Of a stretch of 34,043 bases of DNA, positions 16,422 to 31,371 are shown piece after piece (positions within the stretch are counted from its first letter, which is position 1; each line of letters begins with the position of its first letter). The notes beneath the pieces are model-generated. The model was not told the DNA's origin. It ran no database searches and saw nothing but the letters and a program-made list of their open reading frames with translations. The position numbers were made by a program, and so were the translations under genes. This DNA is from a virus, in UHGV virus genome UHGV-0081034, one strand, 5' to 3'.

Positions 16422-16451
16422 TCGTTGTAAATTCGCACTTTCATTAAAAAG

Positions 16452-16474
16452 TGGACCTGGCGGGAATCGAACCC
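16452..16474 (-). other. attP core candidate: 3' portion of a tRNA gene (T-arm plus acceptor 3' strand, GGGTTCGATTCCCGCCAGGTCCA on the minus strand)
   Basis: GGTTCGATTCC T-loop consensus followed by a 7-nt acceptor strand and discriminator A. The upstream tRNA body is absent, since pairing partners for the T-stem and acceptor are missing. Adjacent to the integrase 3' end. Confidence 0.55.
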
Positions 16475-17815: not shown

Positions 17816-18361
17816 TTATTTCAGCAAATCTGCAATACAGATCTTAAGGTCATCATAGATTCCAACAGGAATCTCATCATCAAAAGAATATTGATTGAAG
17901 TCTTCTATATCACCAAAGAGGTAAGTCTGAACAGTCTCTTTCATTGGATTCACGATCCAGTATTCACGAACACCGGCTGTGCGGTATTTGAATAGCTTGG
18001 TAAGGTAATCCATACGCTGACTGCTTGGTGATACGATTTCGATAATGAAATCTGGGGCACCATTGCATCCATGGTCATTAATCCGGTTTGGATCACAGAT
18101 TACGGAGACATCTGGTTCTACATAGTTATGATCATCCTGATTCAGAAAAACAGCAAATGGAGCAGGCAGAACTTCGCAAGGACCTCCATGGGATTTAATA
18201 TAATCCCGGATTGTTGCGGAAAGTTCCATTACAAGTTTCTGATGAAGATAACTCGGTGGAGCCATGTCATAGATCTGACCGTCAATCAGTTCTGCACGCT
18301 GCCCATCAGGAAGAGCGTAGATGTCTTTGATTGTGTAGTTGTTTGATTTTGGTAATGGCAT
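17816..18361 (-). CDS. Uma2-family (DUF820) PD-(D/E)xK putative endonuclease
   Basis: ATG 18361 follows aagga. ~181 aa with the PDFIIEIVSPSS … GVREYWIVNP hallmark of Uma2 proteins. The track start at 18397 lacks an RBS. Confidence 0.65.
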   Translation of the reverse strand: MPLPKSNNYTIKDIYALPDGQRAELIDGQIYDMAPPSYLHQKLVMELSATIRDYIKSHGGPCEVLPAPFAVFLNQDDHNYVEPDVSVICDPNRINDHGCNGAPDFIIEIVSPSSQRMDYLTKLFKYRTAGVREYWIVNPMKETVQTYLFGDIEDFNQYSFDDEIPVGIYDDLKICIADLLK

Positions 18362-18409
18362 GTGTTCACATCCTTTTGTAATATTATAAAGAAACAATTC
18401 ATAAATAGC

Positions 18410-19282
18410 CTATCCAATTAAGTTGTTTTGTGATGCAGTATCAATTTCCATTGGCGGAATTTCAAGATTGGAAAAAAGCAATTCTTTTCCTTGGACATGT
18501 GTATTAACAGAATAATCCAAATAAATATTTTGGCGCTTGCTTTTTTGATAGAGCTTTCGAATTTCTGGATGATCATCGTAGCTCACCAACCAAGGATATG
18601 ATTTATTTTTAATAAATTTGGCTAATCTTATATGCATACTTTTATCATAAGAATAGCGATACAAAGTAGGCCCCTTTTCATAATAAGGAGGATCGACATA
18701 TACAAATGTGTTATAATTTCTTTTATATTTTGTTTTTTCGTTTAAAAAATCAAGAGCATCCATATTGTATATTTCAATTCTGTCGGAGAAACAAGATAAC
18801 TCACGGATACTTTTAATAATTTTTTCCTTGTTAAAGCGACAATCAATTTTGTATTGTGATTCCTGTTTCATTCCTCCGAGTGGATTCGCATTTAATATAC
18901 CAGAAAAACTTGTTCTATTTAGGTACAATCCGGCAAATCCTATTTCTAGCGGAGATTTATTTGTAAGGTATGAAGAATTTCGGTATTGCGAATAATGCAT
19001 CCAATTATCTAACGTAATGTCAACGTTTTCAATTAGAGTTATTAAATTGTTGGTATCATTCATTACTGATAACCAGAAATAATAAATTAAAGGATCTAAT
19101 TCGTTAATTATTGCTTTTGAAATCGTTTTTGATTCAAGTAATGCTAAGGAAACTGCTGCGCTACCAGCATAAGGCTCATATAAGGTGCAATTAGTAAGAT
19201 GTTCTGTTTCAAGTAGTTTTTTTATGTAGGGAACTAATTTTGATTTTGCACCTGGATAACGCAAAGGATTTTTAATTGGCAT
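18410..19282 (-). CDS. dam: DNA adenine (N6) methyltransferase, Dam / D12 class
   Basis: 290 aa. N-terminal LRYPGAKSKL and YEPYAGSAAV (AdoMet) motifs and a DPPY catalytic motif (YVDPPYY). Very AT-rich gene. Confidence 0.8.
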   Translation of the reverse strand: MPIKNPLRYPGAKSKLVPYIKKLLETEHLTNCTLYEPYAGSAAVSLALLESKTISKAIINELDPLIYYFWLSVMNDTNNLITLIENVDITLDNWMHYSQYRNSSYLTNKSPLEIGFAGLYLNRTSFSGILNANPLGGMKQESQYKIDCRFNKEKIIKSIRELSCFSDRIEIYNMDALDFLNEKTKYKRNYNTFVYVDPPYYEKGPTLYRYSYDKSMHIRLAKFIKNKSYPWLVSYDDHPEIRKLYQKSKRQNIYLDYSVNTHVQGKELLFSNLEIPPMEIDTASQNNLIG

Positions 19283-19334
19283 AAAATCACCTCCTAAATT
19301 TTATTATACATAAAAATAATATATTTGGCCAGAA

Positions 19335-20906
19335 TTATTCGAGTATATCCAAAATAGGAATATCATTTTGTAACGCTAATTGATTGAATATTTCAACATA
19401 ATTGTTCAAAAACAGTTGATATTCGGAAGGGCGAGTGAGTTTCCAATAATTATATAACTTGGAATTACCTCTTCCCCAGTATTTTTCTTGTTCTTTGAAC
19501 CATTTTTTGTATTGCTGAGGGTCGGCGTTACGATCAATTAGTGTAGGATAATTTGCAAAACATTTTTTCTTATCATATTCGCCTAACTCAGTATCCCAAA
19601 AAGAATCTGTTTCGTCCAAAGAATAAAGAAACCTGTAAAACATTTCTTCAGGACAAGTAGTGCCAGGAAGAAACATTACATATTTTCCACGATATTGTTT
19701 AATCTTTTTGCAAATTGATTGCTTATTTTTATCACCATCAAGAATCAAGATACTTTCACAAACGGGTTTTAGTTTTACTCGTAATAATTCAAGGTATGAT
19801 TCAGCACCAATAGAACATGGGCTAAAAACAATATTTTTTCTAAAACCACCATTAAGGAGTGACTTAACAAATGATTGCGCTACATCATCTTCGGTAAAAA
19901 TTGTAATTTTAGGTATGACATCTGGAGTACCTTTAACTGAACCAGATAATTCTAAAATTACATCGTCAATAGAAGTAGTAGGCTTATTTTTTACCAAATT
20001 TCCTTCTTTCTTTAAATATACAAGTTTAGTTTCTTTTGGATTGTATTTATCAAAAAAAGTAGCTTTTAACACAGAAGGAGAGTGTGTTGTAAAAATAAAT
20101 TGTATTTTATAATCACCGGCATATTTATAAAGACGCTTAATGAGCCTCATTTGTGACAAAGGATGAAAAGTTGATTCAATTTCATCAATCAGCAGAATTC
20201 CACCTTTATAATCATTTGGATATTTTTGCATTAGGCGTCTAAAGGATAATACAGAAATTAGAATTTTCCCTAAGTTGTCTTGACCAGCAGAAATAGATAG
20301 CGCATCTTGATCATTTGGGTGAATAGATGCAGTATATTTTATTCCAGAATGTATAGTATCAATTTCTATATTATCTGATAGATCTGACATAATGTCTTTA
20401 TACTCCAATGTTAAAAATTTCTTTTCTTCAGGAGTGAGCTGATTTAAGTATTCAAAAGAGTCTTCTTCGCCAATAGGAGAAACTCTTTTTAAGCTTAAAT
20501 AATAAACAGGAACTTGTGGGTATCCGGTTCCAGCACCTTTACCTTCAGTAGACCAAAAGCGAGGAATTGGATCTGATTTATCACGATATATACTATGTGC
20601 TTCAAAATAATCATTTTTGTATATATTAGGATATAAATTTAAACGCCATTTATGCGTTCCAGGAATATCTTTATCTGAAAGTTTAAATTTTTCTGCAAAT
20701 TGTGAACGATATTTGTAATTATCAATGGAACTTTCGCCATACATGGGATTATTTTTATTTATAGAAAAGGTTTGTCCTAAAATACCTAGAGTGGTAGTTT
20801 TCATAGTTCCATTATGACCAACTATTGCGGTTAGTTTTGTACCTAAATCAAAATCTACATTTTCAAGAGCTCTAAACTTATCTATGTGTACGCTTTTAAT
20901 TATCAT
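19335..20906 (-). CDS. OLD-family ATPase-nuclease (N-terminal ABC-type ATPase plus C-terminal Toprim-like domain); class 1 OLD or fused PARIS-like defence protein
   Basis: 523 aa. Walker A-like GHNGTMKTT, Walker B LLIDEIESTFHP, H-loop TTHSP. C-terminal IFTEDD … ILILDGDKN resembles Toprim E / DxD. Very AT-rich, with its own promoter region at 20907-21025. Confidence 0.6.
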   Translation of the reverse strand: MIIKSVHIDKFRALENVDFDLGTKLTAIVGHNGTMKTTTLGILGQTFSINKNNPMYGESSIDNYKYRSQFAEKFKLSDKDIPGTHKWRLNLYPNIYKNDYFEAHSIYRDKSDPIPRFWSTEGKGAGTGYPQVPVYYLSLKRVSPIGEEDSFEYLNQLTPEEKKFLTLEYKDIMSDLSDNIEIDTIHSGIKYTASIHPNDQDALSISAGQDNLGKILISVLSFRRLMQKYPNDYKGGILLIDEIESTFHPLSQMRLIKRLYKYAGDYKIQFIFTTHSPSVLKATFFDKYNPKETKLVYLKKEGNLVKNKPTTSIDDVILELSGSVKGTPDVIPKITIFTEDDVAQSFVKSLLNGGFRKNIVFSPCSIGAESYLELLRVKLKPVCESILILDGDKNKQSICKKIKQYRGKYVMFLPGTTCPEEMFYRFLYSLDETDSFWDTELGEYDKKKCFANYPTLIDRNADPQQYKKWFKEQEKYWGRGNSKLYNYWKLTRPSEYQLFLNNYVEIFNQLALQNDIPILDILE

Positions 20907-28419: not shown

Positions 28420-28724
28420 AAAGAAGTACAGACACACGCTGGAGTCCTGCAGAGATCCAGCAGAATCAAAAAGAACATTATGCTGCTATGGCAGAGCATC
28501 CGCCTGACCGGAAGGCAAGCGAGAAGTTTCATCGGCCGGCATACCAAGCAGGCAATCTGATCAAAGCACAGGGGCAGCAGTTGTGGCATGGAGATGTGGC
28601 GGAGTATTTGGCGAGAAAGTACAAGATAGGAGATGATGCCAATGGAGAAGAGACTGGAAGAGAACAATGTGAAGAACGAGAACAACCGGAAAAAAGAGTA
28701 TCTGAGAGGATACAGAGCCAATAG
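28416..28724 (+). CDS. Hypothetical protein (GTG start; overlaps the next gene by ~90 nt)
   Basis: 102-aa ORF from the track. Coding status uncertain because of the large overlap. Confidence 0.3.
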   Translation: MKRSTDTRWSPAEIQQNQKEHYAAMAEHPPDRKASEKFHRPAYQAGNLIKAQGQQLWHGDVAEYLARKYKIGDDANGEETGREQCEEREQPEKRVSERIQSQ

Positions 28725-29091
28725 AAGACGAATCAGCAGAATTGACGATGAGGTAAGAGAACTTAGGGAACTTGCAGAATCTACGAAAGCAACAGACTAT
28801 TCGGGGATGCCACATGGTAGTGGAAATCAGAAAGATCTGTCAGATGAATTGGCAAGAATTGATTCACTGGAAAAGAGATTACAGAAAGAAAAAAGCAAAT
28901 GCATCGAATCATATATATCCATTGAAAATCAGATTAAGACAGTGAAGAATGAAGATGAGAACGATGTACTGTTTTACAGATACATTAAGGGATTGCGTTT
29001 TTGGGAAATCGCTGAAAAGATGGATTGTACAGAACAGTGGGTTCATAAGTTGCATGGGAGAGCATTAGGACGTTTAAAAATACCAAAATAA
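28633..29091 (+). CDS. Sigma-70 region-4-like HTH protein; candidate late-gene transcriptional activator (ArpU/RinA-like)
   Basis: 152 aa. C-terminal LFYRYIKGLRFWEIAEKMDCTEQWVHKLHGRALGRL resembles sigma r4. Last regulatory gene before the packaging module. Confidence 0.55.
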   Translation: MMPMEKRLEENNVKNENNRKKEYLRGYRANRRRISRIDDEVRELRELAESTKATDYSGMPHGSGNQKDLSDELARIDSLEKRLQKEKSKCIESYISIENQIKTVKNEDENDVLFYRYIKGLRFWEIAEKMDCTEQWVHKLHGRALGRLKIPK

Positions 29092-29290
29092 TTTATTATA
29101 GTTTATTGAAGTTTAGTATAAATGTGTGAGAGAATTACAATGAGCCGAGGACGGAAAACCGAAGGCTCGTCCTCTCTTTGTATAAAACCTAAGAAGCACC
29201 TGCACAGGGATGTGTGGGTGTTTTTCTGTTGTATAATGTCGAAGTTTGGGATATTATGGAAATAGGGTTTATATAGACGGAGGAATGATT

Positions 29291-30226
29291 ATGGCAAAGA
29301 AAAAAGAAAATGTTGTGAGAAGAAGTTTATATTATTATGACTTATCTTGGAAGTATTTCGATGAAAAGTCTGGAGAATATGTTAGTGTAAAAAGAAAAGA
29401 AGAAAAGTTTGAGAATTTTCTAAAAAAATTCTGTTTCAAAGAAAAGAAAGTAAACGTTAAATACATATCCACGACAGAGAATGAAGATAATTTATTTATT
29501 ATTACAGATAAAATAGAAAATGATAAAATATATTTTAGGATAGTTTTATGTAAAACTAATGCACTTCCTTTAATAGAGCAGGACGGTGAACTAGAAGAAT
29601 TAGAAAAATATATTAATAAAAAGCAAAATATTGCAGAAATAACACATTGTGTATTTTTTAAAGACACTAATATCGTAGGAAGTGAATTTAACTTTTCAGG
29701 AGCAAGAATATCAGCATTGAACTGGTATATTCCAAAAATTCTGAACATATGTGGAGATAATCAAAAATTATATCAAATTAAATTTATGCCCAAAATTGAT
29801 AATGATTCCTATAAGAAATTGGCTAAGAATGAAACAATAACATTATTCGATATGACATTTAAGCCAGATTCAGAGGCATATAAAAACGTTTTAGCACATA
29901 ATAGTTTGTTTAGTGGAGCTGTGAAAAATGTCCCGGATGCAGAAATAATAGAAATAACATTAAAGAGAAGAAAAAATAAGACAAACAGTTATACGGGGAT
30001 GAATGACGTTTTATCATCAGATGATTTGAAAGAATTGTTGACTAAGTATAGAGATGATATTGGGAAATTATATATAAGTCAGGGTTCGTATTGTGATGCA
30101 ATTGATTTATTATCAGATAAACTAGTTAGCAAGGTAGATATAGTTCGGACTAAAAAAAGAACAATAGATTCAAAAGATGTATATAAAAAGATAGAAGAAT
30201 TCTATAAAGAAGAGGTAAAGCCTTAA
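29291..30226 (+). CDS. Hypothetical 311-aa soluble protein in a very AT-rich moron (candidate defence/abortive-infection component)
   Basis: ATG 29291 follows ggagg. Lys/Asn/Ile-rich with 16 ATA codons. No recognisable catalytic motif by eye. Sharp drop in GC relative to flanking phage genes. Confidence 0.5.
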   Translation: MAKKKENVVRRSLYYYDLSWKYFDEKSGEYVSVKRKEEKFENFLKKFCFKEKKVNVKYISTTENEDNLFIITDKIENDKIYFRIVLCKTNALPLIEQDGELEELEKYINKKQNIAEITHCVFFKDTNIVGSEFNFSGARISALNWYIPKILNICGDNQKLYQIKFMPKIDNDSYKKLAKNETITLFDMTFKPDSEAYKNVLAHNSLFSGAVKNVPDAEIIEITLKRRKNKTNSYTGMNDVLSSDDLKELLTKYRDDIGKLYISQGSYCDAIDLLSDKLVSKVDIVRTKKRTIDSKDVYKKIEEFYKEEVKP

Positions 30227-30247
30227 TATTGGGAGAAAATCAATAGA

Positions 30248-30712
30248 ATGGAAAAAACATGGGCGAACAAAATTGATAAAGTAATCATTATCTTTTTACC
30301 GATTTTGATTGGAATCGCAGGAAATATTATATGTAATAAGTGCGGTAAACAACTATTAATAGTTGACAAGGAAAAAGGAATCGATTTATTGAAGACGATT
30401 TTAGATATATGGGGAATATTGCTCGGTTTTATTTTTACGGCAACATCAATCTTATTAACTATTGGAGAAAATCAGTATGTGAAATTGCTAAAAGATACAA
30501 ATCATTTTCCTAATATATTATTTTCATATGTAATGGCAGGAACGTATTTGTTAATGGCAATTACTTTCGGAATAGTATTGCTATTTGTGGACATATGGGG
30601 AGAATGTATTTTTAATATTTTTTTATGCTTAAACATAATAATTATTGTATCTATGGCAATGTGTGTAAAGTTTCTTTTTAATATAATTTTAAACATGGAT
30701 AGAAAGAGATGA
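30248..30712 (+). CDS. Small integral membrane protein (4 predicted TM helices) paired with the preceding gene
   Basis: 154 aa. Hydrophobic stretches at ~10-30, 50-72, 93-115 and 122-145. Same AT-rich composition. Followed by a strong terminator. Confidence 0.55.
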   Translation: MEKTWANKIDKVIIIFLPILIGIAGNIICNKCGKQLLIVDKEKGIDLLKTILDIWGILLGFIFTATSILLTIGENQYVKLLKDTNHFPNILFSYVMAGTYLLMAITFGIVLLFVDIWGECIFNIFLCLNIIIIVSMAMCVKFLFNIILNMDRKR

Positions 30713-30723
30713 TTAATTACAAG

Positions 30724-30746
30724 GCACCCTCCGGGGTGCTTTTCTT
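30724..30746 (+). terminator. Rho-independent terminator (GCACCC-tccg-GGGTGC + TTTTCTT)
   Basis: Perfect 6-bp GC stem with tetraloop and T-run, 12 nt after the membrane-protein stop. Confidence 0.6.
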
Positions 30747-30760
30747 ATCCCCAAAAACCC

Positions 30761-30832
30761 GGACCATTAGTTCAGTGGTAGAACATTCGCCTCATAAGCG
30801 AAATGTCGTAGGTTCGATTCCTGCATGGTCCA
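30761..30832 (+). tRNA. tRNA with anticodon CAT (elongator-type; Met, or more likely Ile2/lysidine)
   Basis: 72-nt cloverleaf: acceptor GGACCAT/ATGGTCC, D-arm GTTC-AGTGGTA-GAAC, anticodon arm TTCGC-CTCATAA-GCGAA, variable loop ATGTC, T-arm GTAGG-TTCGATT-CCTGC, discriminator A. 1:72 is G:C and there is no GGG/CCC anticodon stem, so it is not an initiator. C4:G69 and C5:G68 match E. coli-type tRNA-Ile2 identity pairs. Confidence 0.8.
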
Positions 30833-30861: not shown

Positions 30862-31371
30862 GTGGCGAATGAATACAACCTAAAACCGGTACGAAGCAAG
30901 AGGGAAGCAAGAGAGCGTGGAAGAAACGGTGGTATAAAGTCCGGTGAAGCAAGACGCAGGAAGGCAGCCCTTAGAGATACAATGAATAAGCTCCTGACTA
31001 TGCAGGTGGATGTCGAAGGACTGTCTGATGTGATACGTGCTGACAGTGGAGAGAATACCACTTATGAGGATGTGATCACAATGGCAATGATCCAGGAAGC
31101 TATGCTGGGGAACGTGAAAGCGTATCAGGCCATCATGCAAGTGGTCGGGCAGACGGATAAGTCAGAAGAGGATCTGGAAGAGCAGAAGATTCGGACAGAC
31201 AGAGCCAAGAGAGCTAGAGATCAGGAACTTGGTGATACAGATGGGAAGAATGAGAACATCAATGATTTTTTGAAAGCGATAAAGCCGAGTCAGGAAGATC
31301 TCAACAATTTGTTCACTGGTGAGCAGGAGGAAGAATATGCCGAGGAAACAGAAGAAACCGACGAGATTTAA
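30862..31371 (+). CDS. terS: Terminase small subunit
   Basis: 169 aa. Basic N-terminus and acidic C-terminus. GTG start after aaggtgg. Overlaps the terL start. Confidence 0.6.
   Translation: MANEYNLKPVRSKREARERGRNGGIKSGEARRRKAALRDTMNKLLTMQVDVEGLSDVIRADSGENTTYEDVITMAMIQEAMLGNVKAYQAIMQVVGQTDKSEEDLEEQKIRTDRAKRARDQELGDTDGKNENINDFLKAIKPSQEDLNNLFTGEQEEEYAEETEETDEI

Follow-up and report, generated by a model that had tools for sequence, protein, structure and literature searches.

The tRNA gene and its surroundings

The virus genome UHGV-0081034 (34,043 nucleotides, hereafter the window, meaning the whole stretch of DNA that was analyzed) is that of an entire temperate phage of ~34 kb, and metagenome contigs of 34.1 kb encode an identical integrase. 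By ARAGORN, a sole tRNA gene of 72 nt with the anticodon CAT was detected in the window, and the Rfam model RF00005 matched it from end to end (74.4 bits, E = 1e-14). Every discriminator that we applied supported assignment of this tRNA to the tRNA-Ile2 type, which would read AUA, rather than to tRNA-Met. The features around the gene are as follows.

28633-29091, plus strand: late transcription regulator (sigma-70 region 4 / ArpU / Q-like), with matches to Pfam Sigma70_r4, DUF1492 and, weakly, Phage_antitermQ, and to phrog_36
29192-29225, plus strand: terminator-like hairpin 3' of the regulator, found by terminator search, within a block (29141-29285) that is conserved in relatives
29291-30226, plus strand: AT-rich cargo gene of 311 aa from its ATG, GC 27%, 16 ATA by codon count
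30248-30712, plus strand: AT-rich cargo gene for a small hydrophobic multi-pass membrane protein, 154 codons, 10 ATA, judged from its translation and a weak match to phrog_17119
30724-30745, plus strand: GC-rich hairpin GCACCC-UCCG-GGGUGC with a T-run behind it, separated from the tRNA by 15 nt, seen in the sequence and as a terminator-like match on the palindromic stem
30761-30832, plus strand: tRNA gene, anticodon CAT, Ile2-type, no encoded CCA, by ARAGORN, Rfam, cloverleaf parse and covariance models (CMs)
30862-31371, plus strand: small terminase subunit gene terS, starting 29 nt after the tRNA, by phrog_2412 and by terS in the syntenic Dorea phage DO134P1
31319-32650, plus strand: large terminase subunit gene terL, by Pfam Terminase_6N and phrog_2

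The tRNA was parsed into a cloverleaf (GGACCAU-UA-GUUC-AGUGGUA-GAAC-A-UUCGC-CUCAUAA-GCGAA-AUGUC-GUAGG-UUCGAUU-CCUGC-AUGGUCC-A) in which every stem is paired, with a single G.U in the T stem. The acceptor stem GGACCAU/AUGGUCC consists of G1:C72, G2:C71, A3:U70, C4:G69, C5:G68, A6:U67 and U7:A66 and is followed by the discriminator A73, CCA not being encoded. The D stem GUUC/GAAC (including U12:A23) closes a short D loop of 7 nt, and the anticodon stem UUCGC/GCGAA (including C29:G41) carries the loop CUCAUAA. With a Watson-Crick pair at 1:72 and with neither GGG/CCC at 29-31/39-41 nor A11:U24, the tRNA is of the elongator type, as a preliminary description of the locus had stated on the basis of G1:C72 and the lack of GGG/CCC.

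In order to collect relatives, the anticodon arm was scanned against IMG/VR, which yielded 86 loci, ~60 of them with a tRNA of the window type; the invariance of the anticodon arm within this family is imposed by the search pattern. Among 28 distinct 72-nt versions, 99.5% of the cells in the alignment pair, and compensatory changes were observed at 3:70, 4:69, 49:65 and 50:64, indicating that the cloverleaf is under selection. The pair at 3:70 is A:U in 27 of the 28 and G:C in one, with C:G in none, and a wider viral scan gave further family members with G:C there. C5:G68 is kept in 27/28 members, and the pair at 4:69 is C:G in 12, U:A in 11 and U.G in 4.

The position of the gene is also conserved. 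The hairpin at 30724-30745 is retained together with the tRNA, the conserved block of the relatives beginning at ~30721, and probably terminates the cargo cassette that precedes it. Downstream, the portal gene comes next after terS and terL in the window. Of the family loci, 67 extend far enough downstream to be compared, and in most of them an open reading frame (ORF) of 102-170 aa starts 16-37 nt past the tRNA. Most of these ORFs are followed by one of ~414-487 aa, so that several terminase types are present at a conserved tRNA-terS junction.

Isotype of the CAT tRNA

The isotype was judged by the acceptor stem, by two kinds of profile and by comparison with annotated genes. In the survey of CAT tRNAs of 234 genomes by Silva et al. 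2006 (PMC1635315), A3, G3, U70 or C70 were absent from Met and fMet genes, and the Ile2 model of tRNAscan-SE 2.0 was trained on that classification (PMC8450103). Since the window tRNA has A3:U70, both Met and fMet are excluded under this rule. Its acceptor starts with GGAC, and the GGCU that opens E. coli metT and the Met-type tRNAs of the three-CAT arrays described below is not present; the metT acceptor, GGCUACG, agrees with the U4:A69 and A5:U68 ascribed to elongator tRNA-Met in the preliminary description.

Home-made CMs, trained on 35 Ile2-type and 8 Met-type sequences, scored the window tRNA at 85.1 bits as Ile2 type and at 70.4 bits as Met type (difference +14.7). The same difference ranged from -10.7 to -16.9 for Met controls and was +3.0 for T4 tRNA-Ile, which lies outside the training set. 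A TFAM-like position-specific scoring matrix (PSSM) built from sequences outside the family gave log2 odds of +52 for Ile2 over Met, and still +24 without the acceptor stem. The Ile2-like identity that had been proposed for the gene was thus supported by A3:U70, by our own CMs and by the PSSM.

Pairwise, the window tRNA was 71-80% identical to references of the Ile2 type and 67-70% identical to those of the Met type. When 5,426 complete E. coli genomes were searched, only genes annotated as tRNA-Ile with a CAT anticodon matched it over the full length. An Enterococcus phage tRNA-Ile(CAT), a tRNAscan-SE call with 76% identity, was the best match in an annotated phage record after that of the Dorea phage, and a chromosomal Lachnospiraceae CAT tRNA located between recD2 and recG was 80% identical.

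As internal controls, we used two Clostridia contigs that carry arrays of 36-37 tRNAs with three CAT genes apiece. One of the three is of the initiator type, one is of the GGCU type like metT, and the third starts with GGAUCCG or AGACCCA and has A3:U70 and C5:G68; by elimination, the third is Ile2. In the array of L098 this third CAT tRNA is nearly paralogous to the tRNA-Ile(GAU) of the same array. Arrays with three CAT tRNAs were seen in metagenome-assembled Clostridia contigs at L098:3985-7527 and L157:142-5088 and in L192.

The identity set of E. coli isoleucyl-tRNA synthetase (IleRS) is reportedly A73, C4:G69, U12:A23, C29:G41, A37 and A38 (Nureki et al. 1994). All six are present in the window tRNA. 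The preliminary description had read C4:G69 and C5:G68, correctly, from the sequence and had taken them as determinants for the lysidine synthetase TilS. Both pairs are frequent in Ile(CAT) genes (PMC1635315), and that part stood; C4:G69 had been weighted too strongly, as the pair varies within the family and TilS determinants differ by species, being 4:69 and 5:68 in E. coli and 3:70 together with the D loop in Burkholderia (PMC12514573).

The alternative is that the gene encodes an elongator tRNA-Met, charged by methionyl-tRNA synthetase (MetRS) and reading AUG. This is how it is labelled by ARAGORN and in Prokka-style annotation, in keeping with its CAT anticodon, and the record of Dorea phage DO134P1, which has the same tRNA-terS-terL order, likewise gives tRNA-Met(cat). 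However, the ARAGORN label derives from the anticodon only, as does that of the Dorea record, and the acceptor stem, the 14.7-bit deficit of the Met-type CM and the lower identity to Met types all stand against it. In E. coli, MetRS accepts tRNA-Ile2 that is unmodified (PMC1635315), so that any molecules missed by TilS would behave as tRNA-Met. On balance, we consider a tRNA-Met highly improbable.

A different kind of CAT tRNA was seen in Pyrinomonadaceae (L097, L100, L123, L127, L129, L136 and others). These tRNAs have an initiator-like acceptor, UGCGGAG/CUCCGCA with U1:A72, together with an elongator D stem and the anticodon stem UUCGC/GCGAA; the normal GGCU Met type also occurs in that family.

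Host, codon usage and the role of the tRNA

Beside the integrase gene, on the minus strand at 16452-16473, lies a 22-nt tRNA-like 3' end in which 19/22 bases are as in the 3' end of the window tRNA. The contig L298 contains a complete tmRNA (270-612, tag ANDNFELAAA) that ends at this attP core, and in human-gut metagenome contigs (L377, L393 and L398) the tmRNA is joined to window position 16451 and downward with 95-99% identity. These junctions indicate that the phage integrates into ssrA of a human-gut Lachnospiraceae host, restoring ssrA. A close prophage (L121) was found in [Ruminococcus] faecis JCM 15917.

Next to attB there is a chromosomal CAT tRNA that is convergent with ssrA and lies ~415 nt past the 3' terminus of that gene (L320:889-963, L317:7038-7113, L410:5000-5075 and four more metagenome loci). 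Its acceptor, GGACCUU, has A3:U70, C4:G69 and C5:G68 and matches that of the window tRNA at pairs 1-5 and 7 (6/7), with 73% identity overall; it is called Ile2 by the same 3:70 rule. Its anticodon stem is ACCGG/CCGGU, and it is 81% identical to the Enterococcus phage tRNA-Ile(CAT).

Another CAT tRNA, of the GUGCCGU type, is common in Lachnospiraceae genomes and has G3:C70, C4:G69 and C5:G68 (loci in L092, L096:3579-3652, L105, L126, L135, L139, L174, L182, L193, L200 and L202). It was rejected as a reference for the host tRNA-Ile2, since the element that carries it is mobile and encodes Rep_ORF2/G2P, SSB and ParA, and in at least 11 Lachnospiraceae species the flanks of this element are mostly ~90% or more identical. 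The [Ruminococcus] faecis copy of this tRNA adjoins purL.

Host codon usage was counted in the genes upstream of ssrA, and downstream contigs such as L329, which look chimeric (GC3 0.6-0.7), were left out. These genes, nine ORFs with 3,997 codons in all, contain 6.8 ATA per 1000 codons with ATA/Ile of 0.10; the values were 9.2 and 0.13 in a noisier pool of 67 ORFs, and purL of [Ruminococcus] faecis has 1 ATA in 890 codons. The whole phage has 16.6 ATA per 1000 codons (ATA/Ile 0.22), so that it uses ATA ~2x as often as the host, and its cargo ~8x. Within the phage, the two cargo genes pooled have 56 ATA per 1000 codons (ATA/Ile about 0.46-0.47), the ATPase and Dam genes of an island described below 24.6 (0.30), and all other genes 13.9 (0.20).

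We therefore favour, as the probable explanation, a functional phage-borne tRNA-Ile2 that provides a general AUA-decoding supply for the whole phage and is not specific to the cargo; the ~2-fold ATA use relative to host genes makes such a supply role plausible. The tRNA would be made as the first part of the late (packaging) transcript and excised by RNase P and RNase Z, after which a host enzyme would add CCA. Host TilS would then turn C34 into lysidine, and the tRNA would be charged by IleRS and read only AUA, the expected benefit being extra AUA decoding across the phage genes.

Several observations weigh against this explanation. As to the isotype, the Met profiles were trained on few sequences (8-9, drawn from three lineages), the class labels derive in part from the acceptor-stem rule, and C4:G69 is not conserved across the family. 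As to the supply role, ATA is only ~2-fold lower in the host, and other Lachnospiraceae vary from 0 to 44 per 1000. Within the terL lineage, carriers of the CAT tRNA, with 17.9 ATA per 1000 codons, exceeded the tRNA-less relatives, with 13.5, only slightly (Mann-Whitney p = 0.04, and p = 0.12 for ATA/Ile), the samples being phylogenetically non-independent. Finally, about half of the close relatives have no tRNA at this place and others carry a different one.

This last point was examined in 41 loci related through terL (terL identity 46-99%, nearly all at least 75%). The slot before terS is occupied by an Ile2-like CAT tRNA in 10 of them and by no tRNA in ~21, the others containing Thr-CGU, Lys-UUU, Val-UAC, a tRNA with the anticodon UUC, or an initiator-like CAT tRNA. 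The slot tRNAs (loci L208-L254) lie ~480-940 nt upstream of terL (examples: L216:4458-4529, L218:7409-7482, L239:2228-2299, L229:641-714, L237:7150-7223 and L238:6991-7064). L216 (UUC) and L218 (CAT) agree in acceptor stem, T arm and 298/300 bases downstream; their D and anticodon arms are different, the tRNAs being 59/74 identical. Likewise, L239 (CGU) and L229 (CAT) share the same acceptor stem and have flanks that are 90% identical, with tRNAs of 73% identity. The anticodon arm of the host-locus tRNA is identical in the slot tRNAs of L210, L217 and L218, and its D arm in L217 and L218 only. Sequence comparison suggests that host and phage tRNA copies may have been exchanged.

Such variability would also fit a different use of an Ile2-type tRNA, in which it is kept as a nuclease-resistant spare that replaces a host tRNA cut by an OLD/PARIS-type Toprim, retron or PrrC-like defence, so that late translation survives. 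Phage tRNAs are reported to neutralise PARIS and retron nucleases (PMC11464382, PMC11555353). P2 OLD, which cuts anticodon stems at paired CNG motifs, is neutralised by phage tRNAs as well, with resistance mapping to the anticodon arm (PMC12445682). In the terL lineage, the type of slot tRNA varies among close relatives, in some cases with swapped anticodon arms, and does not track cognate-codon use: for the other slot tRNAs, use of the codons ACG, AAA, GAA and GTA was no different from the rest of the lineage. The window tRNA itself has no paired CNG (UCG/CGA at 28-30/40-42), whereas the host-locus tRNA has CCG/CGG. On the other hand, the slot CAT tRNAs of L218, L229 and L238 keep the CNG motif (CCG/CGG), and the window tRNA shares the canonical anticodon loop CUCAUAA with the host-locus tRNA. 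Nor was any nuclease that targets tRNA-Ile2 found, and none is known to us; the tRNA is also unlinked to the ATPase/Toprim-like island that the phage itself carries. The spare-tRNA explanation is hence unlikely, although worth keeping in view. A broader version, in which the position before terS is an exchangeable tRNA cassette and the window tRNA one allele of an arms race rather than a codon supply, we likewise rate as rather doubtful on these sequence comparisons.

A further explanation, which the preliminary description had offered, ties the tRNA to the ATPase/Dam island and the adjacent ATA-rich morons: the phage would have acquired it along with these genes, or would retain it for their sake, to boost their translation. 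The tRNA does lie directly downstream of the cargo, and cargo and island exceed the rest of the phage in ATA use, as given above. The count of 16 ATA in 311 codons for the adjacent gene proved exact from the ATG at 29291, and ATA was also frequent, as had been stated, in the membrane gene (10/154) and in the ATPase and Dam genes; the core genes, which had been called sparse in ATA, are so only relatively (15 ATA in the tape-measure gene and 10 in the minor capsid gene). However, the cargo amounts to 480 of ~10,700 codons and 27 of 178 ATA, and its ATA/Ile of 0.46 is close to the 0.50 predicted from its third-position A share, and thus reflects AT-richness only.

The distribution of the genes points the same way. 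In the alignment of the window with family loci, the shared blocks are the regulator region, 29141-29285 and the hairpin-tRNA-terS block, the last being kept in ~60 relatives, whereas the stretch 29285-30721 is common to L051 and L062 only and is replaced elsewhere by other inserts of ~0.4-1.4 kb. The ATPase was found in only four IMG/VR contigs, none of which is in the tRNA list, and linkage of the tRNA to the island was rejected. With the cargo confined to two relatives, the island unlinked and carriers about equal to non-carriers in ATA, the claim of a boost to acquired genes was not supported, and a helper of the morons is quite improbable. The window tRNA is a component of the phage backbone and no part of the adjoining AT-rich cargo.

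As for these neighbours, Pfam, PHROGs, PADLOC, NCBIfam and PDB gave no match to the soluble 311-aa cargo protein, and the membrane protein had none in Pfam, PADLOC, NCBIfam or PDB and only a weak one in PHROGs; the pair (29291-30712, plus strand, GC 27%) may be an unrecognised exclusion or defence pair. The defence-like island lies on the minus strand at 17816-20906 and comprises a Uma2-family gene (PADLOC PDC-S03), a Dam-like methyltransferase that matches PD-Lambda-5_B (E = 1e-94), and a 523-aa ABC ATPase that matches the AriA, PtuA, GajA and ATPase-Toprim models.

Lastly, tRNA-dependent lysogeny, in which integration disrupts the host tRNA-Ile2 and the phage copy replaces it, has a precedent for tRNA-Ile2-CAT in Gordonia phages (PMC10865867) and would agree with the tRNA-like 3' end adjoining the integrase gene, but was rejected from the ssrA junctions in L298, L377, L393 and L398, because this fragment is the tmRNA 3' end, the attP core of at least 22 nt rebuilds ssrA and the host CAT tRNA ~415 nt away is intact, so that its probability is practically nil.

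Significance and comparison with known systems

For annotation, the gene should be named tRNA-Ile2(CAT) instead of tRNA-Met, as should those of Dorea phage DO134P1 and of dozens of gut phages in IMG/VR whose tRNAs were named by anticodon alone. The window gene should further be regarded as belonging to the phage backbone, where it opens the packaging operon, and not as a part of a moron. Phage-borne tRNAs for AUA decoding are already well known as cargo, and a gut Lachnospiraceae example is added here to the familiar pattern of temperate phages with an AUA decoder. The biological gain is modest. The variable slot with its swapped anticodon arms is the more useful lead, and it might offer a natural experiment on whether single phage tRNAs are kept for codon supply or for counter-defence.

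Among known systems, ileZ of the Shiga-toxin phage 933W is alike in that it is prophage-borne, annotated as tRNA-Ile, carries a CAT anticodon and reads a host-rare codon, and the layout of that phage is also similar (Q, terminators, ileZ, argN, argO, the moron stx2AB and then the late genes). It differs in its proteobacterial host, in C3:G70 (GGCCCUU) and in an encoded CCA, and ileZ belongs to a three-tRNA cluster with its own annotated promoter, whereas the window has a single tRNA directly before terS. T4 tRNA-Ile is the classical phage AUA decoder. It too is annotated as isoleucyl, with the gene anticodon CAT and with C4:G69 and C5:G68; T4, however, is lytic, infects E. coli and has a cluster of eight tRNAs, and its tRNA-Ile favours the Ile2 CM by only +3 bits.

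The bacterial tRNA-Ile2 of Bacillus/Enterococcus and Lachnospiraceae shares with the window tRNA a GGACC-type acceptor, A73, CUCAUAA, C29:G41, G30:C40 and a T stem like GUAGG/CCUAC, at 73-80% identity. Compared to the host-locus tRNA, which has a GCUC/GAGC D stem, a 9-nt D loop and the anticodon stem ACCGG/CCGGU, the window tRNA differs by U11:A24 in its D stem, its 7-nt D loop and UUCGC/GCGAA.

The Gordonia phages OneUp and Mollymur are likewise temperate and carry tRNA-Ile2-CAT (PMC10865867), but they integrate into the host tRNA-Ile2 gene and destroy it, whereas the attB of the window phage is ssrA, which is restored. A parallel in codon usage comes from temperate siphophages of Latilactobacillus curvatus, also of the Firmicutes, in which tRNA-Ile2(CAU) is the commonest phage tRNA (PMC10688831). 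In those phages ATA makes up 15.7% of Ile codons, against 4.3% in the host, and a phage without tRNA shows a similar excess (PMC10688831). The pattern is mirrored here, with 0.22 in the window phage against ~0.10 in the host and no clear difference between carriers and non-carriers; the two systems differ in the host family, Lactobacillaceae there and Lachnospiraceae here, and in the position before terS, no fixed one being described for the Latilactobacillus phages.

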